This document shows positions 1 through 17,425 of a DNA stretch of 17,425 nucleotides, piece after piece. The DNA is taken from IMG/VR virus record IMGVR_UViG_2531839586_000008; one strand, 5' to 3'. Within the stretch, counting starts at the first letter, position 1; every line of letters starts with the position of its first letter. This DNA is from a virus (Duplodnaviria > Heunggongvirae > Uroviricota > Caudoviricetes). Under the pieces are notes generated by a model. That model was not told where the DNA came from. It made no database searches and worked only from the letters and a program-made list of their open reading frames with translations. A program made the position numbers and the translations under genes.

Positions 1-321
<321 letters not shown>

Positions 322-443
322 CTCACGCGCATATTAACGAGAGCCTTTCAGTAAGCGAGCCTGAGAAATGCCGTTATAGGTGGCGACCTCTCTCGGGCGG
401 CTTTTCTGTGAGACAGGCTCACTTTCTAAAAGGTAAAGACGCT

Positions 444-968
444 ATGAATAATCATTCAGTTATTCCAGCCTTCGACTTCCGAGAAATGGTGCAAGCCAAA
501 AACGGAGAGGTCGTTACCACATCCAGAAAAATTGCCAAGTACTTCGGCAAGCGACACGGTGATGTTCTCAGGAAAATCGAGCAGGTTAAGGCTGATTGCT
601 CGCGTGAGTTTAGCCAACGCAATTTTGCGTCGGCTGATTATATCGATGAGCAGGGCAAGGTTCGCCCGATGTACAGCCTGACGAAAGATGGCTGGATCAT
701 GGTTGTGATGGGGTTCACCGGGAAAGCTGCTGCGGCAATCAAGGAGAGCTATATCGCAGCATTCAACTGGATGGCAGAACAACTGAGCCGCCGCATGGCA
801 ATTGGCGAAGAAATGCAGCACCGCTACGCCATCAAAGAAACACGCTCAAAGCTGAAAGGTACGATCGGCAGTCGGTTAATGAACGAACGGAAGAAAGAGA
901 AGCGTGTCCTGGCTGTCGAGCATGAATACATCTTGCAGGTGACACAGCCTGAACTGCTGATTAATTGA
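444..968 (+). CDS. Rha-family phage regulatory protein (antirepressor-like)
   Basis: 174-aa ORF from the ATG at 444, with an AAGG-containing stretch (428-432) about 11 nt upstream. Sequence VVTTSRKIAKYFGKRHGDVLRKIE...MYSLTKDGWIMVVMGFTGKAAAAIKESYIAAFNWM matches the Phage_pRha domain pattern. The 294 start offered by the ORF track probably lies in the IS end or junction. Confidence 0.75.
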   Translation: MNNHSVIPAFDFREMVQAKNGEVVTTSRKIAKYFGKRHGDVLRKIEQVKADCSREFSQRNFASADYIDEQGKVRPMYSLTKDGWIMVVMGFTGKAAAAIKESYIAAFNWMAEQLSRRMAIGEEMQHRYAIKETRSKLKGTIGSRLMNERKKEKRVLAVEHEYILQVTQPELLIN

Positions 969-1270
969 AGATGTCATTACAAAGCCTATCTACGGGGGGC
1001 TTGATAATGGCTTATACCCTGCACGGGATAACTTAACTGATATCCCTTTTAACGGATAAAGGTATTCAAGCCTGACACATCATGCGCTGTATCGTCGCCG
1101 TATTCCCGCATTAACCATGACCGTAGCACGACGGGGAATTCCTTCTGCGGGAGGGTGCGGGAATAATCAAAAACGATGCACACCGGGTTATTAACGCGTC
1201 AACTGAACGCGGGGTTGCTCTTCATGTCAGCCAGTCCGGTGCAGGGGTAGAAGAAACCGGACGTTATGGT

Positions 1271-1681
1271 TTAGTGTGGAAACATTTGTGATGTGCTCTG
1301 TATGTTTTCAGTAAAGAGTAATGAATTATCAAAGGCATAGTAATATCTTTTTTGTTCGTGGATATTTGTAACCCACCGAAAAACTCCTGCTTTAGCAAGG
1401 TTTCTTCTGTATTCCTGAAATGTGATCTCTCTGGATTTCAGCTTATTAGAGGTCGTTTCTATAAGATGCCTATCCTTTGAAAATTTGACAGACACAATGT
1501 TTTTTAGGCCCTTTAATAACACTGTATTATCATTTTTTAATACAATATGAACATTCTCTGTGGCTAAATAGTAAATGTAATGTGAGACATTATGACGTTT
1601 TAGCTCAGAATAAAACCATTGATAGTTTAAATCGTTTCGAACTTTATCAAATATTTGTTTAAAAATGACTACCTGATCCAT
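1271..1681 (-). CDS. DUF1398-family prophage protein (YdfO/YbcV-like), 136 aa
   Basis: Minus-strand ORF. Start chosen at the ATG (MDQVV...) that has a GGAAGG Shine-Dalgarno 7 nt upstream, rather than the upstream GTG at 1723. The region is markedly AT-rich compared with flanking phage DNA. Length and sequence resemble the E. coli cryptic-prophage proteins YdfO/YbcV (recalled, not searched). Confidence 0.7.
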
Positions 1682-1739
1682 AGATAAACCTTCCATGTGA
1701 TATGAGGGGGGCGTAGTCTGCACGATTATCTAAATTGCT

Positions 1740-1973
1740 TCAATCTGGTCTGATCTGTTTTCTGAGCAATTCAGTAATGTCACTCTTTTCTTTGTTTGCT
1801 TCAGGAGAAACTCTTTTTTCTGAGCACAGTCTCCGGCGGCAGGCTTCAATGACCCAGGCTGAGAAATTCCCGGACCCTTTTTGATCAAGAGCGATGTTAA
1901 TTTGTTCAATCATTTGGTTAGGAAAGCGGATGTTGCGGGTTGTTGTTCTGCGGGTTCTGTTCTTCGTTGACAT
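1740..1973 (-). CDS. DUF3950-family small protein with ribbon-helix-helix-like core (YnfO/YlcI-like), 77 aa
   Basis: Minus-strand ORF MSTKNRTRRTTTRNIRFPNQMIEQINIALDQKGSGNFSAWVIEACRRRL... The basic N-terminal tail followed by a beta-strand/helix/helix pattern is typical of RHH (CopG/Arc-type) DNA-binding proteins. It sits immediately next to cos/Nu1, as ynfO/ylcI sit next to nohA/nohD in E. coli K-12 cryptic prophages. Confidence 0.7.
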   Translation of the reverse strand: MSTKNRTRRTTTRNIRFPNQMIEQINIALDQKGSGNFSAWVIEACRRRLCSEKRVSPEANKEKSDITELLRKQIRPD

Positions 1974-2172
1974 GAGGTTGCCCTGTATTCAGTGTCACTG
2001 ATTTGTATTGTCTGAAGTTGTTTTTACGTTAAGTTGATGCAGATCAATTAATACGATACCTGCGTCATAATTGATTATTTGACGTGGTTTGATGGCGTAG
2101 ATGCACGTTGTGACATGCAGATGATAATTATTATCATTTTGCGGATCCTTTCCGGCGATCCGACAGGTTACG

Positions 2173-2184
2173 GGGCGGCGACCT
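2173..2184 (+). other. cosN, the 12-nt cohesive-end sequence GGGCGGCGACCT (terminase nicking site)
   Basis: Exact match to the lambda left cohesive end, preceded by ...CCGACAGGTTACG as at the lambda right end, and located about 190 bp upstream of Nu1 as in lambda. Confidence 0.85.
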
Positions 2185-2220
2185 CTCGGGTTTTCGCTAT
2201 TTATGAAAATTTTCCGGTTT

Positions 2221-2340
2221 AAGGCGTTTCCGTTCTTCTTCGTCGTAACTTAATGTTTTTATTTAAAATACCCCCTGAAAAGAAAGGAAACGACAGGTGC
2301 TGAAAGCGAGCTTTTTGGCCTCTGTCGTTTCCTTTCTCTG
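2221..2340 (+). other. cosB terminase small-subunit binding region: R3 (2225-2238), AT-rich I1/IHF region (about 2244-2276), R2 (2281-2296, inverted), R1 (2322-2338)
   Basis: Three copies of the CGTTTCC(g/t)TTCT R-element. R2 is inverted relative to R3 and R1, and an AT-rich stretch lies between R3 and R2, matching lambda cosB organisation. Confidence 0.75.
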
Positions 2341-2361
2341 TTTTTGTCCGTGGAATGAACA

Positions 2362-2881
2362 ATGGAAGTCAACAAAAAGCAGCTGGCTGACATTTTCGGC
2401 GCGAGTATCCGTACCATTCAGAACTGGCAGGAACAGGGAATGCCCGTTCTGCGAGGCGGTGGCAAGGGTAATGAGGTGCTTTATGACTCTGCCGCCGTCA
2501 TAAAATGGTATGCCGAAAGGGATGCTGAAATTGAGAACGAAAAGCTGCGCCGGGAGGTTGAAGAACTGCGGCAGGCCAGCGAGGCAGATCTCCAGCCAGG
2601 GACTATTGAGTACGAACGCCATCGACTTACGCGTGCGCAGGCCGACGCACAGGAACTGAAGAATGCCAGAGACTCCGCTGAAGTGGTGGAAACCGCATTC
2701 TGTACTTTCGTGTTGTCGCGGATCGCAGGTGAAATTGCCAGTATTCTCGACGGGATCCCCCTGTCGGTGCAGCGGCGTTTTCCGGAACTGGAAAACCGAC
2801 ATGTTGATTTCCTGAAACGGGATATCATCAAAGCCATGAACAAAGCAGCCGCGCTGGATGAACTGATACCGGGGTTGCTGA

Positions 2882-2907
<26 letters not shown>
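2362..2907 (+). CDS. nu1: Terminase small subunit Nu1
   Basis: 181-aa ORF MEVNKKQLADIFGASIRTIQNWQEQGMPVLRGGGKGNEVLYDSAAVIKWYAERD..., recognisable as lambda gpNu1 (winged-HTH N-terminus). Sits directly downstream of cosB. Confidence 0.95.
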
Positions 2908-6581
<3,674 letters not shown>

Positions 6582-6601
<20 letters not shown>

Positions 6602-7897
6602 TCTCCCGCATATTGCCAGTATGGCCTTTAATGAGCCGCTGATGCTTGAACCCGCCTATGCGCGGGTTTTCTTTTGTGCGCTTGCAGGCCAGCTTGGGAT
6701 CAGCCGCCTGACGGATGCGGTGTCCGGTGACAGCCTGACTGCCCAGGAGACACTCGCGACGCTGGCGTTATCCGGTGATGATGACGGACCACGACAGGCC
6801 CGCAGTTATCAGGTCATGAACGGCATCGCCGTGCTGTCGGTTTCCGGCACGCTGGTCAGCCGGACGCGGGCGCTGCAGCCGTACTCGGGGATGACCGGTT
6901 ACAACGGCATTATCGCCCGTCTGCAACAGGCTGCCAGCGACCCGATGGTGGACGGCATTCTGCTCGATATGGACACGCCAGGCGGAATGGTGGCGGGGGC
7001 ATTTGACTGCGCTGACATCATCGCCCGTGTGCGTGACATAAAACCGGTATGGGCGCTGGCCAACGACATGAACTGCAGTGCAGGTCAGCTGCTTGCCAGT
7101 GCCGCCTCCCGGCGTCTGGTCACGCAGACCGCCCGGACAGGCTCCATCGGCGTCATGATGGCTCACAGTAATTACGGTGCTGCCCTGGAGAAACAGGGCG
7201 TGGAAATCACGCTGATTTACAGCGGCAGCCATAAGGTGGATGGCAATCCCTACAGCCATCTTCCGGATGACGTCCGGGAGACACTGCAGTCCCGGATGGA
7301 CGCAACCCGCCAGATGTTTGCGCAGAAGGTGTCGGCATATACCGGCCTGTCTGTGCAGGCTGTGCTGGATACCGAGGCTGCAGTGTACAGCGGTCAGGAG
7401 GCCATTGATGCCGGACTGGCTGATGAACTTGTTAACAGCACCGATGCGATCACCGTCATGCGTGATGCACTGGATGCCTAAATCCCGTCTCTCAGGAGGG
7501 CGAATGACCAAAGAGACTCAATCAACAACTGTTTCAGCCACTGCTTCGCAGCTGACGTTACTGACGTGGTGCCAGCGACGGAGGGCGAAAACGCCAGCGC
7601 GGCGCAGCCGGACGTGAACGCGCAGATCACGCTGCGGTTGCGGCAGAAAACAGCCGCATTATGGGGATCCTCAACTGTGAGGAGGCTCACGGACGCGAAG
7701 AACAGGCGCGCGTGCTGGCAGAAACCCCCGGTATGACCGTGGAAACGGCCCGCCGCATTCTGGCCGCAGCACCACAGAGTGCACAGGCGCGCAGTGACAC
7801 TGCGCTGGATCGTCTGATGCAGGGGGCACCGGCACCGCTGGCTGCAGGTAACCCGGCATCTGATGCCGTTAACGATTTGCTGAACACACCAGTGTAA
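6582..7897 (+). pseudogene. C: Head maturation protease C with nested scaffold Nu3, frame-disrupted
   Basis: GTG start 20 nt inside the B 3' end (VTAELRNLPHIASMAFNEPL...). Frame 0 stops at 7479-7481 (...VMRDALDA*). Continuation KSRLSGGRMTKETQSTTVSATASQ is in frame 1, and the C-terminus MGILNCEEAHGREEQARVLAETPG...NDLLNTPV is in frame 2, ending at 7897. Confidence 0.7.
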
Positions 7898-7906
7898 GGG
7901 ATGTTT

Positions 7907-8239
7907 ATGACGAGCAAAGAAACCTTTACCCATTACCAGCCGCTGGGCAACAGTGACCCGGCACATACGGCAACCGCGCCCGGCGGATTGAGTGCGAAAG
8001 CGCCTGCAATGACCCCGCTGATGCTGGACACCTCCACCCGTAAGCTGGTTGCGTGGGATGGCACCACCGACGGTACTGCCGTTGGCATTCTGGCGGTTGA
8101 TGCTGACCAGACCAGCACCACGCTGACGTTCTACAAGTCCGGCACGTTCCGTTATGAGGATGTGCTCTGGCCGGAGGCTGCCAGCGACGAGACGAAAAAA
8201 CGGACCGCGTTTGCCGGAACGGCAATCAGCATCGTTTAA
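7907..8239 (+). CDS. D: Head decoration protein D, 110 aa
   Basis: [46 protein letters not shown]...AISIV, recognisable as lambda gpD. Start ATG at 7907 with AAGGG upstream. Confidence 0.9.
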
Positions 8240-8260
8240 CCTTACCCTTCATCACTAAAG

Positions 8261-8281
8261 GCCGCCTGTGCGGCTTTTTTT
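8261..8281 (+). terminator. GC hairpin plus T-run between D and E (GCCGC-CTGT-GCGGC-TTTTTTT); terminator-like, probably read through in the late operon
   Basis: 5-bp GC stem with a 4-nt loop followed by 7 T, directly seen in the sequence. Its function as a terminator is not established. Confidence 0.3.
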
Positions 8282-8294
8282 ACGGGATTTTTTT

Positions 8295-9320
8295 ATGTCG
8301 ATGTACACAACCGCCCAGCTGCTGGCGGCAAATGAGCAGAAATTTAAGTTTGATCCGCTGTTTCTGCGTCTCTTTTTCCGTGAGAGCTATCCCTTCACCA
8401 CGGAGAAAGTCTATCTCTCACAAATTCCGGGACTGGTAAACATGGCGCTGTACGTTTCGCCGATTGTTTCCGGTGAGGTTATCCGCTCCCGTGGCGGCTC
8501 CACCTCTGAATTTACACCGGGATATGTCAAGCCGAAGCATGAGGTGAATCCGCAGATGACCCTGCGTCGCCTGCCGGATGAAGATCCGCAGAATCTGGCG
8601 GACCCGGCTTACCGCCGCCGTCGCATCATTATGCAGAACATGCGTGACGAAGAGCTGGCCATTGCCCAGGTCGAAGAGATGCAGGCAGTTTCTGCCGTGC
8701 TTAAGGGCAAATACACCATGACCGGTGAAGCTTTCGATCCGGTTGAGGTGGATATGGGCCGCAGTGCGGCCAACAACATCACGCAGTCCGGCGGCACGGA
8801 GTGGAGCAAGCGTGACAAGTCCACGTATGACCCGACCGACGATATCGAAGCCTACGCGCTGAACGCCAGCGGAGTGGTGAATATCATCGTGTTTGATCCG
8901 AAAGGCTGGGCGCTGTTCCGTTCCTTCAAAGCCGTCAAGGAGAAGCTGGATACCCGTCGCGGCTCTAATTCCGAGCTGGAGACAGCGGTAAAAGACCTGG
9001 GCGAAGCGGTGTCCTATAAGGGGATGTATGGCGATACGGCGATCGTCGTGTATTCCGGACAGTACGTGGAAAACGACGTCAAAAAGAACTTCCTTCCGGA
9101 CAACACGATGGTGCTGGGGAACACTCAGGCACGCGGTCTGCGCACCTATGGCTGCATTCAGGATGCGGACGCACAGCGCGAAGGTATTAACGCCTCTGCC
9201 CGCTACCCGAAAAACTGGGTGACCACCGGCGATCCGGCGCGTGAGTTCACCATGATTCAGTCAGCACCGCTGATGCTGCTGGCTGATCCTGATGCGTTCG
9301 TGTCCGTACAACTGGCGTAA
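8295..9320 (+). CDS. E: Major capsid protein E, 341 aa
   Basis: ORF from MSMYTTAQLLAANEQKFKFDPLFLRLFFRESYPFTTEKVYLSQIPG... to ...FVSVQLA, recognisable as lambda gpE. The ORF track's upstream start at 8268 is rejected. Confidence 0.95.
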   Translation: MSMYTTAQLLAANEQKFKFDPLFLRLFFRESYPFTTEKVYLSQIPGLVNMALYVSPIVSGEVIRSRGGSTSEFTPGYVKPKHEVNPQMTLRRLPDEDPQNLADPAYRRRRIIMQNMRDEELAIAQVEEMQAVSAVLKGKYTMTGEAFDPVEVDMGRSAANNITQSGGTEWSKRDKSTYDPTDDIEAYALNASGVVNIIVFDPKGWALFRSFKAVKEKLDTRRGSNSELETAVKDLGEAVSYKGMYGDTAIVVYSGQYVENDVKKNFLPDNTMVLGNTQARGLRTYGCIQDADAQREGINASARYPKNWVTTGDPAREFTMIQSAPLMLLADPDAFVSVQLA

Positions 9321-9361
9321 TCATGGCCCTTCGGGGCCATTTTCTCTCTGTGGAGGAGTCT

Positions 9362-9754
9362 ATGACGAAAGATGAACTGATTGCCCGTCTTCAGGTGCTG
9401 GGTGAGCAACTGAACCGTGATGTCAGCCTGACGGGGACGAAAGAAGAACTGGTGCTCCGTGTGGCAGAGCTGGAAGAGGAGCTTGATGACACGGATGACG
9501 CTGCCGGTCAGGACACATCTGTCAGCCCGGAAAATGCGCTGACCGGACATGAAAATGAGGTGGTATCAGCGCAGCCGGATACCGTGATTGATACGGCTGC
9601 TCTGGTCACGGTCGTGGCACTGGTGACGCTGCATACTGATGCACTTCACGCCACGCGGGATGAGCCTGTGGCATTTGTGCTGCCGGGAACGGCGTTTCGT
9701 GTCTCTGCCGGTGTGGCAGCCGAAATGACAGACGGCCTGGCCAGAATGCAATAA
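9362..9754 (+). CDS. FI: DNA-packaging accessory protein FI, 130 aa
   Basis: ORF MTKDELIARLQVLGEQLNRDVSLTGTKEELVLRVAELEEELDD..., with GGAGG RBS upstream. Preceded by the hairpin ATGGCCC-TTCG-GGGCCAT at 9323-9340. Confidence 0.85.
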   Translation: MTKDELIARLQVLGEQLNRDVSLTGTKEELVLRVAELEEELDDTDDAAGQDTSVSPENALTGHENEVVSAQPDTVIDTAALVTVVALVTLHTDALHATRDEPVAFVLPGTAFRVSAGVAAEMTDGLARMQ

Positions 9755-9765
9755 CGGGAGGCGCT

Positions 9766-10116
9766 GTGGCTGATTCGATAACCTGTTCGATGCTGCCATT
9801 GCCCGCGCCGATGAAACGATACGCGGGTACATGGGAACGTCAGCCACCATGACATCCGGTGAGCGTCGGTGCGGTGATACGTGGTGTTTTTGATGACCCT
9901 GAAAATATCAGCTATGCCGGACAGGGCGTGCGCGTTGAAGGCTCCAGCCCGTCCCTGTTTGTCCGGACTGATGATGTGCGGCAGCTGCGGCGCGGCGACA
10001 CGCTGACCATCGGTGAGGAAAACTTCTGGATAGACCGGATTTCGCCGGATGATGGCGGAAGCTGTCATCTCTGGCTTGGGCGGGGCGTACCGCCTGCCGT
10101 TAACCGTCGCCGCTGA
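9766..10116 (+). pseudogene. FII: Head-tail connector protein FII, frame-disrupted near the N-terminus
   Basis: GTG at 9766 follows a GGGAGG RBS, but that frame hits TGA after about 28 codons. The FII-like N-terminal peptide DNLFDAAIARADETIRGYMGTSAT is in another frame, and the conserved C-terminal 85 aa (...GAVIRGVFDDPENISYAGQGVRVEG...NRRR) is in the 9859-10116 frame. Confidence 0.65.
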
Positions 10117-10127
10117 AAGGGGGATGT

Positions 10128-10706
10128 ATGGCCATAAAAGGTCTTGAGCAGGCCGTTGAAAACCTCAGCCGTATCAGCAAAACGGCGGTGCCTGGTGCCG
10201 CCGCAATGACCATTAACCGCGTTGCGTCATCCGCGATATCGCAGTCTGCGTCACAGGTTGCCCGTGAGACAAAGGTACGCCGGAAACTGGTAAAGGAAAG
10301 GGCCAGGCTGAAAAGGGCCACGGTCAAAAATCCGCAGGCCAGAATCAGGGTTAACCGGGGGGATTTGCCCGTAATCAAGCTGGGTAACGCGCGGGTTGTC
10401 CTTTCGCGCCGCAGGCGTCGTAAAAAGGGGCAGCGTTCATCCCTGAAAGGTGGCGGCAGCGTGCTTGTGGTGGGAAACCGTCGTATTCCCGGCGCGTTTA
10501 TTCAGCAACTGAAAAATGGCCGGTGGCATGTCATGCAGCGTGTGGCCGGGAAAAACCGTTACCCCATTGATGTGGTGAAAATCCCGATGGCGGTGCCGCT
10601 TACCACGGCGTTTAAACAGAATATTGAACGGATACGGCGTGAATGTCTTCCGAAAGAGCTGGGCTATGCGCTGCAGCATCAACTGAGAATGGTAATAAAG
10701 CGATGA
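10128..10706 (+). CDS. Z: Tail completion protein Z, 192 aa
   Basis: Intact ORF MAIKGLEQAVENLSRISKTAVPGAAAMTINRVASSAISQSASQVARETKVRRKL... with GGGGGA RBS. Position and sequence match lambda gpZ. Confidence 0.9.
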   Translation: MAIKGLEQAVENLSRISKTAVPGAAAMTINRVASSAISQSASQVARETKVRRKLVKERARLKRATVKNPQARIRVNRGDLPVIKLGNARVVLSRRRRRKKGQRSSLKGGGSVLVVGNRRIPGAFIQQLKNGRWHVMQRVAGKNRYPIDVVKIPMAVPLTTAFKQNIERIRRECLPKELGYALQHQLRMVIKR

Positions 10707-11098
10707 AACATACTGAACTCCGTGCAGCCGTACTGGATGCACTGGAGAAGCATGACACCGGGGCGACGCTTTTTGATGGTCGCCCCGCTGTTTTTGATGA
10801 GGCGGATTTTCCGGCAATTGCCGTTTATCTCACCGGCGCTGAATACACGGGCGAAGAGCTGGACAGCGATACATGGCAGGCGGAGCTGCATATTGAAGTT
10901 TTCCTGCCTGCTCAGGTGCCGGATTCAGAGCTGGATTCGTGGATGGAGTCCCGGATTTATCCGGTGATGAGTGATATCCCGGCACTGTCAGATTTGATCA
11001 CCAGTATGGTGGCCAGCGGCTATGACTACCGGCGCGACGATGATGCGGGCCTGTGGAGTTCAGCCGATCTGACTTATGTCATTACCTATGAAATGTGA
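10703..11098 (+). CDS. U: Tail terminator protein U, 131 aa
   Basis: [48 protein letters not shown]...ITYEM, with ATGA overlap with the Z stop. The ORF track's upstream start at 10643 is rejected. Confidence 0.9.
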
Positions 11099-11105
11099 GG
11101 ACGCT

Positions 11106-11825
11106 ATGCCTGTACCAAATCCTGTAATGCCGGTGAAAGGTGCCGGGACCACCCTGTGGGTTTATAAGGGAACGGTGACCCTTATGCGAACCCGCTTTCA
11201 GACGTTGACTGGTCGCGTCTGGCTAAAGTTAAAGACCTGACGCCCGGCGAACTGACCGCTGAGTCCTATGACGACAGCTATCTCGATGATGAAGATGCAG
11301 ACTGGACTGCGACCGGGCAGGGGCAGAAATCTGCCGGAGATACCAGCTTCACGCTGGCGTGGATGCCCGGAGAGCAGGGGCAGCAGGCGCTGCTGGCGTG
11401 GTTTAATGAAGGCGATACCCGTGCCTATAAAATCCGCTTCCCGAACGGCACGGTCGATGTGTTCCGTGGCTGGGTCAGCAGTATCGGTAAGGCGGTGACG
11501 GCGAAGGAAGTGATCACCCGACGGTGAAGTCACCAAGTGGGCGTCCGTCATGGCAGAAGATCGCAGACGGTACGCGGCAACCGGATGACGTGACGCCTGC
11601 CAGCCTCGGTGGTGAAAGGGCAGAGCACCACGCTGACCGTGGCATTCCAGCCGGAGGGCAACGACAAGAGCTTCCGTGCGGTGTCGCGGATAAAACAAAA
11701 GCACCGTGTCGGTCAGTGGTATGACCATCACCGTGAAGGGTTGCTGCAGGAAGGTCAACATTCCGGTTGTATCCGGTAATGGTGAGTTTGCTGCGGTTGC
11801 AGAAATCACCGTCACCGCCAGTTAA
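11106..11825 (+). pseudogene. V: Major tail tube protein V, heavily frame-disrupted
   Basis: ATG at 11106 gives [22 protein letters not shown], then the frame is lost (stop at 11238-11240). The V-like peptide [115 protein letters not shown] is in another frame and stops at 11525-11527. The C-terminal part is further scrambled up to the TAA at 11823-11825. No single ORF covers V. Confidence 0.7.
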
Positions 11826-11840
11826 TCCGGAGAGTCAGCG

Positions 11841-12262
11841 ATGTTCCTGAAAACCGAATCATTTGAACATAACGGTGTGACCGTCACGCTTTCTGAACTG
11901 TCAGCCCTGCAGCGTATTGAGCATCTCGCCCTGATGAAACGGCAGGCAGAACAGGCGGAGTCAGTCTCAATCGACAGGTGAGCGTGGAAGATCTCGTCAG
12001 AACCGGCGCTTTTCTGGTGGCGATGTCCCTGTGGCATAGCCATCCGCAGAAGACAAAGATGCCGTCCATGAATGAAGCCGTTAAACAAATTGAGCAGGAA
12101 GTGCTTACCACCTGGCCCACAGAGGCAATTGCTCAGGCTGAAAATGTGGTAATGCGTCTGTCCGGTATGTCTGAGTTTGTTGTGAATGATGCACCTGAAC
12201 AGGCAGATGACGCCGGGCCAGCAGAGCCTGTTTCTGCGGGAAAGTGTTCGACGGTGAGCTGA
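11841..12262 (+). pseudogene. G: Tail assembly chaperone G, frame-disrupted about 45 codons in
   Basis: ATG at 11841 gives MFLKTESFEHNGVTVTLSELSALQRIEHLALMKRQAEQAESVSIDR, then TGA at 11979-11981. The conserved remainder VEDLVRTGAFLVAMSLWHSHPQKTKMPSMNEAVKQIEQEVLTTWPTEA...AGKCSTVS is in the 11978-12262 frame. Confidence 0.65.
12238..12244 (+). other. G-T programmed -1 ribosomal frameshift slippery heptamer GGGAAAG
   Basis: GGGAAAG lies 16 nt upstream of the G stop, with the T reading frame open in the -1 frame from this point, as established for lambda G/G-T. Confidence 0.6.
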
Positions 12263-12678
12263 GTTTTGCCCTGAAACTGGCGCGTGAGATGGGGCGACCC
12301 GACTGGCGTGCCATGCTTGCCGGGATGTCATCCACGGAGTATGCCGACTGGCACCGCTTTTACAGTACCCATTATTTTCATGATGTTCTGCTGGATATGC
12401 ACTTTTCCGGGCTGACGTACACCGTACTCAGCCTGTTTTTCAGCGATCCGGATATGCATCCGCTGGATTTCAGTTTGCTGAACCGGCGTGAGGCTGACGA
12501 AGAGCCTGAAGATGATGTGCTGATGCAGAAAGCGGCAGGGCTTGCCGGAGGTGTCCGCTTTGGCCCGGACGGGAATGAAGTTATCCCTACTTCCCCGGAT
12601 GTGGCGGACATGACGGAGGATGACGTAATGCTGATGACAGTATCAGAAGGGATCGCAGGAGGAGTCCGGTATGGCTGA
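12244..12678 (+). CDS. T: T frame of the G-T tail assembly chaperone (expressed only as a G-T fusion via -1 frameshift)
   Basis: Open frame VFDGELSFALKLAREMGRPDWRAMLAGMSSTEYADWHRFYSTHYFHDVLLDMHFSGLTYTV... in the -1 frame relative to the G C-terminus, ending with an 8-nt overlap with the H start. Confidence 0.7.
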   Translation: MFDGELSFALKLAREMGRPDWRAMLAGMSSTEYADWHRFYSTHYFHDVLLDMHFSGLTYTVLSLFFSDPDMHPLDFSLLNRREADEEPEDDVLMQKAAGLAGGVRFGPDGNEVIPTSPDVADMTEDDVMLMTVSEGIAGGVRYG

Positions 12679-15234
12679 ACCGGTAGGCGATCTGGTCGTT
12701 GATTTGAGTCTGGATGCGGCCAGATTTGACGAGCAGATGGCCAGAGTCAGGCGTCATTTTTCCGATACGGAAAGTGATGCGAAAAAAACAGCGGCAGTCG
12801 TTGAACAGTCAATGAACCGGCAGGCGCTGGCTGCACAGAAAGCGGGGATTTCCGTCGGACAGTATAAAGCCGCCATGCGTATGCTGCCTGCACAGTTCAC
12901 CGACGTGGCCACGCAGCTTGCAGGCGGGCAAAGTCCGTGGCTGATCCTGCTGCAACAGGGGGGTCAGGTGAAGGACTCCTTCGGCGGGATGATCCCCATG
13001 TTCCGGGGGCTTGCCGGTGCGATCACCCTGCCGATGGTGGGGGCCACCTCGCTGGCGGTGGCGACCGGTGCGCTGGCGTATGCCTGGTATCAGGGCAACT
13101 CAACCCTGTCCGATTTCAACAAAACGCTGGTCCTTTCCGGCAATCAGGCGGGACTGACGGCAGATCGTATGCTGGTCCTGTCCAGAGCCGGGCAGGCGGC
13201 AGGGCTGACGTTTAACCAGACCAGCGAGTCACTAGCCTGGTAATGCCGGTGTGGGTGGCAGTTGCGTCCATCAGCCAGAGTGTGGCGCGTTTCTCCTCTG
13301 CATCCGGCGTGGAGGTGGACAAGGTCGCTGAAGCCTTCGGGAAGCTGACCACTGACCCGACGTCGGGCTGACGCGATGGCACGCAGTTCCATAACGTGAC
13401 GGCGGAGCAGATTGCGTATGTTGCTCAGTTGCAGCGTTCCGGCGATGAAGCCGGGGCATTGCAGGCGGCGAACGAGGCCGCAACGAAAGGGTTTGATGAC
13501 CAGACCCGCCGCCTGAAAGAGAACATGGGCACGCTGGAGACCTGGGCAGACAGGACAGCACGGGCATTCAAATCCATGTGGGATTCGGTGCTGGATATTG
13601 GTCGCCCGGACACTGCCCAGGGAATGCTGGAGAAAGCAGAAAAGGCTTTTGATGAGGCGGACAAAAAATGGCAGTGGTATCAGAGCCGGAGCCACCGGCG
13701 CGGTAAAACCTCAGCATTTCTTGCCAATCTCCGGGGAGCATGGGAGGACAGAGCGAATGCGCAACTTGGGCTTTCAGCCGCCACGTTGCAGGCCGATCTT
13801 GAAAAGGCCAGAGAGATGGCAGCAAAGGACTGGGCCGAGTCTGAGGCATCACGGCTGAAATATACCGAAGAGGCGCAGAAGGCTTACGAACGGCTGCAGA
13901 CGCCGCTGGAGAAATATACCGCCCGTCAGGAAGAACTGAACAAGGCACTGAAAGACGGGAAAATCCTGCAGGCGGATTACAACACGCTGATGGCGGCGGC
14001 GAAAAAGGATTATGAAGCGACGCTGAAAAAGCCGAAACAGTCCGGCGTGAAAGTGTCTGCGGGCGATCGTCAGGAAGACAGTGCTCATGCTGCCCTGCTG
14101 ACGCTTCAGGCAGAACTCCGGACGCTGGAGAAGCATGCCGGAGCAAATGAGAAAATCAGCCAGCAGCGCCGGGATTTGTGGAAGGCGGAGAGTCAGTTCG
14201 CGGTACTGGAGGAGGCGGCGCAACGTCGCCAGCTGTCTGCACAGGAGAAATCCCTGCTGGCGCATAAAGATGAGACGCTGGAGTACAAACGCCAGCTGGC
14301 TGCACTTGGCGACAAGGTTACGTATCAGGAGCGCCTGAACGCGCTGGCGCAGCAGGCGGATAAATTCGCACAGCAGCAACGGGCAAAACGGGCCGCCATT
14401 GATGCGAAAAGCCGGGGGCTGACTGACCGGCAGGCAGAACGGGAAGCCACGGAACAGCGCCTGAAGGAACAGTATGGCGATAATCCGCTGGCGCTGAATA
14501 ACGTCATGTCAGAGCAGAAAAAGACCTGGGCGGCTGAAGACCAGCTTCGCGGGAACTGGATGGCAGGCCTGAAGTCCGGCTGGAGTGAGTGGGAAGAGAG
14601 CGCCACGGACAGTATGTCGCAGGTAAAAAGTGCAGCCACGCAGACCTTTGATGGTATTGCACAGAATATGGCGGCGATGCTGACCGGCAGTGAGCAGAAC
14701 TGGCGCAGCTTCACCCGTTCCGTGCTGTCCATGATGACAGAAATTCTGCTTAAGCAGGCAATGGTGGGGATTGTCGGGAGTATCGGCAGCGCCATTGGCG
14801 GAGCTGTTGGTGGCGGAGCATCCGCGTCAGGCGGTACAGCCATTCAGGCCGCTGCGGCGAAATTCCATTTTGCGACCGGGGGATTTACGGGAACCGGCGG
14901 CAAATATGAGCCAGCGGGGATTGTTCACCGTGGTGAGTTTGTCTTCACGAAGGAGGCAACCAGCCGGATTGGCGTGGGGAATCTTTACCGGCTGATGCGC
15001 GGCTATGCCACCGGCGGTTATGTCGGTACACCGGGCGGCATGGCAGACAGCCGGTCGCAGGCGTCCGGGACGTTTGAGCAGAATAACCATGTGGTGATTA
15101 ACAACGACGGCACGAACGGGCAGATAGGTCCGGCTGCTCTGAAGGCGGTGTATGACATGGCCCGCAAGGGTGCCCGTGATGAAATTCAGACACAGATGCG
15201 TGATGGTGGCCTGTTCTCCGGAGGTGGACGATGA
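12671..15234 (+). pseudogene. H: Tail tape measure protein H, frame-disrupted between the N-terminal 190 aa and the C-terminal 612 aa
   Basis: ORF 12671-13243 (MAEPVGDLVVDLSLDAARFDEQMARVRRHF...) stops at 13241-13243. An H-like peptide ASISQSVARFSSASGVEVDKVAEAFGKLTTDPTSG is in a third frame, and the remainder (13396-15234, ...GGLFSGGGR) is in another. Coiled-coil and Gly-rich composition is typical of tape measure proteins. Confidence 0.75.
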
Positions 15235-15560
15235 AGACCTTCCGCTGGAAAGTGAAACCCGGTATGGATGTGGCTTCGGTCCCTTCTGTAAGAAAGGTGC
15301 GCTTTGGTGATGGCTATTCCCAGCGAGCGCCTGCCGGGCTGAATGCCAACCTGAAAACGTACAGCGTGACGCTTTCTGTCCCCCGTGAGGAGGCCACGGT
15401 ACTGGAGTCGTTTCTGGAAGAGCACGGGGGCTGGAAATCCTTTCTGTGGACGCCGCCTTATGAGTGGCGGCAGATAAAGGTGACCTGCGCAAAATGGTCG
15501 TCGCGGGTCAGTATGCTGCGTGTTGAGTTCAGCGCAGAGTTTGAACAGGTGGTGAACTGA
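15231..15560 (+). CDS. M: Tail tip assembly protein M, 109 aa
   Basis: Intact ORF MKTFRWKVKPGMDVASVPSVRKVRFGDGYSQRAPAGLNANLKTYSVTLSVPREEATVLESFLEEHGGWKSFLWTPPYEWRQIKVTC...; ATGA overlap with the H stop. Confidence 0.9.
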   Translation: MKTFRWKVKPGMDVASVPSVRKVRFGDGYSQRAPAGLNANLKTYSVTLSVPREEATVLESFLEEHGGWKSFLWTPPYEWRQIKVTCAKWSSRVSMLRVEFSAEFEQVVN

Positions 15561-16253
15561 TGCAGGATATCCGGCAGGAAACACTGAATGAATGCACCCG
15601 TGCGGAGCAGTCGGCCAGCGTGGTGCTCTGGGAAATCGACCTGACAGAGGTCGGTGGAGAACGTTATTTTTTCTGTAATGAGCAGAACGAAAAAGGTGAG
15701 CCGGTCACCTGGCAGGGGCGACAGTATCAGCCGTATCCCATTCAGGGGAGCGGTTTTGAACTGAATGGCAAAGGCACCAGTACGCGCCCCACGCTGACGG
15801 TTTCTAACCTGTACGGCATGATCACCGGGATGGCGGAAGATCTGCAGAGTCTGGTCGGCGGAACGGTGGTCCGGCGTAAGGTTTACGCCCGTTTCTGGAT
15901 GCGGTGAACTTCGTCAACGGAAACAGAGCCGATCCGGAGCAGGAGGTGATCAGCCGCTGGCGCATGAGCAGTGCAGCGAACTGAGCGCGGTGAGTGCCTC
16001 CTTTGTACTGTCCACGCCGACTGAAACGGATGGCGCTGTTTTTCCGGGACGTATCATGCTGGCCAACACCTGCACCTGGACCTATCGCGGCGATGAGTGC
16101 GGTTATAGCGGTCCGGCTGTCGCGGATGAATATGACCAGCCAACGTCCGATATCACGAAGGATAAATGCAGCAAATGCCTGAGCGGTTGTAAGTTCCGCA
16201 ATAACGTCGGCAACTTTGGCGGCTTCCTTTCCATTAACAAACTTTCGCAGTAA
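15560..16253 (+). pseudogene. L: Tail tip assembly protein L, frame-disrupted in the middle
   Basis: ORF 15560-15907 (MQDIRQETLNECTRAEQSASVVLWEIDLTEVGGERYFFCNEQNEKGEPVTWQGRQYQPYPIQGSGF...RRKVYARF) stops prematurely. The C-terminal part (...SASFVLSTPTETDGAVFPGRIMLANTCTWTYRGDECGYSGP...SINKLSQ) is in the 15990-16253 frame. Confidence 0.7.
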
Positions 16254-16257
16254 TCCC

Positions 16258-17001
16258 ATGACACAGACAGAATCAGCGATTCTGGCGCACGCCCGGCGAT
16301 GTGCGCCAGCGGAGTCGTGCGGCTTCGTGGTGAGAACGCCGGAGGGGGAAAGATATTTTCCCTGCGTGAATATCTCCGGTGAGCCGGAGGCGTATTTCCG
16401 GATGTCGCCGGAGGACTGGCTGCAGGCAGAAATGCAGGGTGAGATTGTGGCGCTGGTCCACAGCCACCCCGGTGGTCTGCCCTGGCTGAGTGAGGCCGAC
16501 CGGCGGCTGCAGGTGCAGAGTGATTTGCCGTGGTGGCTGGTCTGCCGGGGGACGATTCATAAATTCCGCTGTGTGCCGCATCTCACCGGGCGGCGCTTTG
16601 AGCACGGGGTGACGGACTGTTACACGCTGTTCCGGGACGCTTACCATCTGGCGGGAATTGAGATGCCGGATTTTCATCGCGGGGATAACTGGTGGCGTCA
16701 CGGTCAGAATCTCTATCTGGATAATCTGGAGGCCACAGGGCTGTATCAGGTGCCGTTGTCAGCGGCGCAGCCGGGCGATGTGCTGCTGTGCTGTTTTGGT
16801 TCATCGGTGCCGAATCATGCCGCCATTTACTGTGGTGACGGCGAGCTGCTGCACCATATTCCTGAACAACTGAGCAAACGAGAGAGGTATACCGACAAAT
16901 GGCAGCGACGCACACACTCCCTCTGGCGTCACCGGGCATGGCACGCATCTGCCTTTACGGGGATTTGCAACGATTTGGCCGCCGCATCGACCTTCGTGTG
17001 A
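16258..17001 (+). CDS. K: Tail tip assembly protein K (JAB/MPN metalloprotease-like N-domain plus NlpC/P60-like C-domain), 247 aa
   Basis: ORF MTQTESAILAHARRCAPAESCGFVV... contains the JAMM-type motif HSHPGGLPWLSEAD (HxHx7Sx2D) and a downstream Cys/His-containing NlpC/P60-like region (DCYTLF...). Position between L and I matches lambda. Confidence 0.85.
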   Translation: MTQTESAILAHARRCAPAESCGFVVRTPEGERYFPCVNISGEPEAYFRMSPEDWLQAEMQGEIVALVHSHPGGLPWLSEADRRLQVQSDLPWWLVCRGTIHKFRCVPHLTGRRFEHGVTDCYTLFRDAYHLAGIEMPDFHRGDNWWRHGQNLYLDNLEATGLYQVPLSAAQPGDVLLCCFGSSVPNHAAIYCGDGELLHHIPEQLSKRERYTDKWQRRTHSLWRHRAWHASAFTGICNDLAAASTFV

Positions 17002-17425
17002 AAACGGGGGCCGAAGCCATCCGGGCGCTGGCCATGCAGATCCCGGCGTTTCGTCAGAAGCTGAGCGACGGCTGGTATCAGGTACGCATTGCCGGGCGTG
17101 ATGCAGGTAAAACCGAATTGTCTGCCCGTCTTAATGAGCCGCTGGAAAATGGTGCCGTGATCCATATCGTGCCGCGTCTGGCAGGAGCCAAAAGTGGCGG
17201 TGTGTTTCAGGCTGTGCTGGGGGCGGCTGTTATGGCGGTTGCTATATGGATGCCGGGGGTAGGAATTATGGCGAGTAATCTGCTGTTTTCTCTCGGTGCC
17301 AGTATGGTGCTCGGTGGTGTGGCGCAGATGCTGGCACCGAAAGCCAGAACTCCCCGTACACAGACAACGGATAACGGCAAACAGAACACCTATTTCTCCT
17401 CACTGGATAACATGGTTGCCCAGGG
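16899..17425 (+). CDS. I: Tail tip assembly protein I, N-terminal part (3' end outside window)
   Basis: ATG at 16899 opens a frame with no stop to the window end (MAATHTLPLASPGMARICLYGDLQRFGRRIDLRVKTGAEAIRAL...). It overlaps the K 3' end in a different frame, as in lambda. Not in the ORF track because no stop lies within the window. Confidence 0.8.
   Translation, partial: MAATHTLPLASPGMARICLYGDLQRFGRRIDLRVKTGAEAIRALAMQIPAFRQKLSDGWYQVRIAGRDAGKTELSARLNEPLENGAVIHIVPRLAGAKSGGVFQAVLGAAVMAVAIWMPGVGIMASNLLFSLGASMVLGGVAQMLAPKARTPRTQTTDNGKQNTYFSSLDNMVAQ

Follow-up and report, generated by a model that had tools for sequence, protein, structure and literature searches.

Frameshifts in the C/Nu3 protease-scaffold gene of a lambdoid prophage contig very probably arise from the collapse of two near-identical prophages into one assembly

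In the viral record analysed here, a lambda-type head protease-scaffold gene cannot be read through in a single frame, and this raises the question whether the prophage has lost its C/Nu3 gene or whether the frameshifts belong to the assembly. The window, i.e. the whole stretch of 17,425 nt that was analysed, corresponds by exact-protein match to the full length of contig AQBW01000016.1 from the draft WGS assembly GCA_000358615.2. It is a lambda-type late-gene module with the gene order cos, Nu1, A, W, B, C/Nu3, D, E, FI, FII, Z, U, V, G/T, H, M, L, K, I and is collinear with positions 1 to ~15,300 of lambda (J02459) at 97-98% identity. According to the alignment with lambda and the Pfam calls of the neighbors, C sits between portal gene B, whose end it overlaps, and the decoration/capsid genes D and E. 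A preliminary description, made from the letters of the window, had recognized the gene as lambda C/Nu3. The alignment to lambda gpC/gpNu3 agrees with this: the nucleotide sequence is ~98% identical to lambda 4236-5939, the order B-C(Nu3)-D-E is kept, Pfam places a Peptidase_S49 domain (PF01343, E=8.8e-45) in the N-terminal two thirds of the protein (residues 150-296 of the ORF of 299 aa in the window), and Nu3 retains its internal in-frame ATG. Judged by this likeness, the gene is lambda C/Nu3 and would work like it. Unlike lambda, the record is 4 nt short, and the 439-codon frame is spread over three frames.

The gpC frame was read directly from the window. It starts with GTG at 6582 and runs to ...VMRDALDA, where it ends at the stop TAA 7479-7481, just as the preliminary description had it. 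This stop occupies codon 300 and lies just after the Peptidase_S49 match, so the earlier placement of the break between protease domain and scaffold part is fair. Compared with lambda and two E. coli prophages, four single bases are absent, after 7477, 7478, 7551 and 7630. They form three break sites, with 2 nt lost at 7477/7478 and 1 nt at each of the other two, and the C span 6582-7897 consequently measures 1316 nt, 4 nt less than the 1320 nt of lambda and the two reference prophages. The TAA arises from the two-base loss, by which GC[A/G]C[A/G]T becomes GCCT. Across the window, the reading path of C passes from frame 3 to frame 1, back to frame 3 and then to frame 2 (Table 1). The continuation in frame 1 and the C-terminal part in frame 2 (MGILNCEE...NDLLNTPV, equal to ORF 7661-7897) had both been described correctly before. 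However, only two shifts had been listed, and the intervening frame 3 segment, whose frame is also used by ORF 7566-7736, had been overlooked.

In lambda, C starts at 4418 and nu3 at 5132, an offset of 714 nt. The nested in-frame Nu3 start, which shares the C-terminal ~201 codons with C, is present in the window, and the frame downstream of it is continuous only after the four bases are restored. As the Nu3 start at 7296 lies upstream of the break, the record as written encodes truncated versions of both C and Nu3, and the expectation that both products would be affected holds for the record.

Table 1. Segments of C/Nu3, positions of missing bases and other affected regions in the window
Feature	Position (nt)	Strand	Details
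Left flank	1..1810	.	End of istB (IS21-family), Rha, DUF1398, YnfO; beside copy 2 only
Terminase A dropout patch	3951..3985	+	3 variant columns lost, net -3, ORF open
Portal gene B patch	5365..5434	+	4 variant columns lost; B split into ORFs 5004-5381 and 5345-6601
gpC (S49 prohead protease/scaffold), codons 1-299 and false TAA 7479-7481	6582..7481	+	
ATG of nested scaffold gene Nu3	7296..7298	+	Aligns with lambda 5132; same frame as C, 5' of the first dropout
Dropout sites 1 and 2	7477..7479	+	Gaps after 7477 and 7478
Gap after 7477			Codon 299 position 3; copy 1 GCA, copy 2 GCG; synonymous
Gap after 7478			Codon 300 position 2; copy 1 CAT, copy 2 CGT; His/Arg
C/Nu3 codons 301-324 (KSRLSGGRMTKETQSTTVSATASQ)	7480..7551	+	Read from 7480, shifted to frame 1
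Dropout site 3	7551..7552	+	One base absent between
Gap after 7551			Codon 325 position 1; copy 1 GCT, copy 2 ACT; Ala/Thr
C/Nu3 codons ~325-351 (…DVTDVVPATEGENASAAQPDVNAQIT)	7552..7630	+	Original frame 3 regained, net loss 3 nt
Dropout site 4	7630..7631	+	One base absent between
Gap after 7630			Codon 351 position 3; copy 1 ACT, copy 2 ACC; synonymous (Thr)
C/Nu3 C-terminal part (AAVAAENSRIMGILNCEE…NDLLNTPV and stop)	7631..7897	+	Shifted to frame 2
FI end/FII start patch	9732..9867	+	6 variant columns lost
Tail tube gene V and G dropouts	11170..11962	+	V: 1 at 11170, 20 at 11520-11750; G: 1 at 11962
Tape-measure gene H patches	13233..13383	+	16 variant columns lost; H split into 12671-13243 and 13396-15234
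Tail gene L patch	15891..15965	+	5 variant columns lost
Short ORF without Pfam match	7478-7690	-	
Short ORF without Pfam match	11106-11240	+	
Short ORF without Pfam match	11198-11761	-	
Short ORF without Pfam match	13243-13371	+	

A whole-window search of complete genomes identified two lambdoid prophages that match the window in the ETEC strain 120899 (NZ_CP025916.1). They are located at 4,736,923-4,758,626 (L001, in the following copy 1) and 569,507-590,728 (L006, copy 2) and are 96-98% identical to each other across this module. Each of them contains an intact S49 peptidase gene of 1320 nt and 439 codons. The continuous frame of ~439 codons, which is absent from the record as written, is thus present in both copies. 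An identical 2.7-kb ISCro1 element (IS66 family) interrupts terminase A in copy 1 (L001 5075-7773) and Z in copy 2 (L006 10875-13572), which corresponds to window positions 4177-4184 and 10349-10357, respectively. The two defects are complementary, and taken together the 120899 copies still provide every head and tail gene in intact form. Neither ISCro1 insertion is found in the window.

The flanks of the contig were compared with the two copies. The left flank 1-1810 matched copy 2 at 99.83% identity, with 3 substitutions and no indels, and was used as internal control. Window 17099-17282 aligned to copy 1 only. As the left flank is specific for copy 2, the contig joins sequence of both copies, and the three substitutions in the flank indicate a source strain closely related to 120899 but distinct from it. 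From the related complete genome and the chimeric flanks of the contig, we infer that the source strain also harbors two copies. The contig opens within istB of the IS21 family and breaks off in tail gene I, at the point from which the two prophage copies diverge; ends of this kind are typical of contigs bounded by repeats.

The window was then aligned to the pair of copies by dynamic programming, where either allele was free, deletion of a variant column was nearly free and all other events were expensive. Window 1811-17098 (15,288 nt) was reproduced without any mismatch or insertion, and no deletion was needed at the 14,923 columns at which both copies carry the same base. The copies differ at 426 columns (2.8%), and every one of the 61 deletions in this constrained alignment was placed on one of these. 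At 2.8% per deletion, the chance of this outcome is ~1e-95. The freedom of gap placement was controlled for by sliding the variant flags by 3-50 columns; just 3-20 deletions could then be placed on a flagged column, and 41-58 events were left without explanation. MAFFT --auto put several gaps beside the variant column, with an apparent coincidence of 33/60, and the variant-aware alignment raised this to 61/61. One of the 61 positions, window 16251 (A in copy 1, gap in copy 2), is a real inter-copy indel near the end of L and not a consensus loss. No association of the dropped sites with homopolymers was observed, with 50 of 61 in runs of 2 or fewer. The deleted bases are sites that vary between lambdoid phages.

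Inside each dropout patch, all consecutive variant columns are gone. At the variant columns that were retained, copy-1 and copy-2 alleles occur in short runs. Over 15 kb the allele switches 65 times; 15 of these switches come within ≤20 nt, the closest at a distance of 3 nt. Compared with the 120899 prophages, every base of window 1811-17098 equals one copy or the other, and the left flank matches that of copy 2; the window differs from them in that 61 of the 426 variant positions and both ISCro1 elements are missing and the alleles are mixed.

The C gene follows the same pattern. Its four gaps are four consecutive inter-copy variant columns, and none of its bases in the window is at odds with both copies. 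Refilling the gaps with the allele of either copy resulted in 439 codons with a single terminal stop, and the repaired protein, like those of both real copies, differs from lambda gpC by few substitutions only. The dropouts hence coincide with sites that differ between the copies, the retained alleles form a mosaic, and the parental genes are intact. Losses at variant sites only, the absence of any private change in 15 kb and the alternation of parental alleles at intervals of a few tens to hundreds of bases are together the signature of a collapsed repeat and not of a real sequence. As expected for a collapsed repeat, the unique flank 1-1810 is free of these errors, and the contig starts inside the IS21 istB gene. 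The C/Nu3 frameshifts are therefore very probably (probability about 0.95) an assembly artefact, which arose when two near-identical prophages were collapsed into one contig.

C/Nu3 is not the only gene affected. Between the window and the closest complete-genome prophage, ~58 gap openings were counted, and these are deletions of 1-3 nt apart from one insertion block. This sole exception, a 9-nt block at ~9493-9505, is a real difference between the prophage copies. Besides C/Nu3, the genes B, FII, V, G, H and L are broken by the artefact. Terminase A measures 640 aa versus 641, and ~11 codons are scrambled out of frame within its 35-nt patch; this error is invisible to a check for stop codons only. 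Along the contig, the dropout patches (3951-15965) return every ~1.4-2.6 kb. The spacing of the patches and the total loss inside them suggest a process tied to tiling or overlap regions of the assembler. In the public gene calls on the contig, the holes left by the false frameshifts are filled with short ORFs without Pfam match, some of them on the opposite strand (Table 1), which are most likely spurious orphan genes.

The C-gene deletions were also searched for in other genomes. A search of 5,426 complete E. coli genomes found them nowhere; the best match there was 99.2% identical (1704 nt versus 1700). An exact 48-mer across the 7477/7478 break had no match in genome contigs and was present in 3 contigs in IMG/VR, and a window-specific 42-mer across the 7630 break had no match in IMG/VR. 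The three IMG/VR contigs, IMGVR_UViG_2537561685_000014 (L003), IMGVR_UViG_2537561684_000005 (L004) and IMGVR_UViG_2531839579_000014 (L005), come from other isolate assemblies. All have the 7477/7478 gap, and their remaining deletions overlap those of the window only partly. When the deletion sets of the four assemblies are compared, any two share deletions that are absent in a third, which is incompatible with a tree. The same constrained alignment revealed that L003, L004 and L005 are also mosaics of copy 1 and copy 2, with 74 of 75 deletions on variant columns. The sole deletion outside a variant column among the 136 examined is located at ~7771 of L004 (column 7811 of the analysed range) and could be a strain-specific variant site or a genuine error. 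In all three contigs, the same two prophages have been collapsed into one consensus, with similar false frameshifts.

The preliminary description had taken the protease-scaffold gene as broken. A genuine pseudogene would belong to a cryptic, decaying prophage in which C/Nu3, B, FII, V, G, H and L were inactivated by real small deletions. The large number of frameshifted genes in the window fits such a history, and both 120899 prophages are already defective through ISCro1, so that selection on their head genes may be relaxed. However, there is no reason why real deletions should fall on paralog-differing sites in 61 of 61 cases against a background of 2.8%, and a decaying prophage does not explain a stretch of 15.3 kb with no private substitution and 65 flips between parental alleles. 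The deletions are moreover found in no complete genome, and the sets in the related assemblies are partly different and incompatible with a tree. In C itself, all four gaps lie on inter-copy variant positions and both parental genes are intact at 1320 nt, and the claim of a broken gene is not supported. We consider a real pseudogene very improbable.

An ordinary platform error unrelated to repeat collapse, for example from poor read ends or miscalled homopolymers, is hardly to be expected either. The deletion-only pattern and the clustering in patches roughly every 2 kb would suit it, and on account of this ~2-kb spacing low-quality read ends had been our first idea. It was dropped, as the lost bases are exactly the inter-copy variant sites; random miscalls would not sit solely on such columns. 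The dropouts also show no link to homopolymers and are missing from the 1.8-kb unique flank, and identical sites return in independent assemblies, all of which argues against an error of the platform.

A single hybrid prophage was considered as well, in which repeated gene conversion between the two resident prophages led to a heteroduplex and faulty repair deleted the mismatched bases at dozens of sites. If true, paralog-variant positions would be the target of a natural mutational process; we regard this as very unlikely. Lambda-type phages use one programmed -1 frameshift, at G/T, and mosaicism is common among lambdoid phages, but a natural recombinant prophage that expresses C/Nu3 by programmed frameshifting or other recoding can be dismissed for practical purposes, as it would require four shifts of differing sign in a stretch of 155 nt, a single uninterrupted frame with no conserved two-frame arrangement is seen in all close relatives, both parental copies among them, and allele switches 3-20 nt apart are unlike natural recombination.

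For the collapse of two prophages, the following course of events can be proposed. The source E. coli would contain two lambdoid prophages with head and tail modules ~97% identical, which were merged into AQBW01000016.1. At an inter-copy variant position, the consensus would take one allele, the other allele or no base, and the baseless positions would be confined to a few patches of ~70-230 nt each. In the 3' third of C, four consecutive variant positions would have been dropped in this way, with the loss of 4 nt and the false stop at 7479-7481 as the result. Where neither allele won, the base may have been lost because the SNP was written as a pair of half-gapped alignment columns and a gap was called in both. 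Alternatively, ambiguity letters may have been stripped afterwards. Both prophage copies in the cell almost certainly encode a normal gpC of 439 aa and a normal Nu3 of 201 aa.

Collapsed repeats and indel-induced false frameshifts are standard error classes in the validation of bacterial assemblies (PMC13577107). The contig shares with the collapsed-repeat errors of draft assemblies, as described there in general terms (PMC13577107), the short repeat-bounded contig, the mosaic alleles and the false frameshifts and premature stops. It differs from them in that the bases at paralog-variant sites are deleted, not miscalled, and that this happens in patches. No description of such a patchy base deletion at paralog-variant sites was found in the literature searched, and a search for AQBW… and GCA_000358615 yielded no paper naming the accession.

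The frameshifted C/Nu3 is thus almost certainly not a property of the organism, where the gene is intact, and has no biological significance of its own. What it reveals is that draft contigs in which co-resident, near-identical prophages are collapsed can hold dozens of false frameshifts. Such contigs are present in public genome collections and in IMG/VR, where at least 3 further contigs bear the same signature, and they inflate the counts of pseudogenes, of "defective prophages" and of orphan short ORFs. These collapsed-prophage cases can be picked out cleanly without reads by asking whether the indels fall on paralog-variant sites.
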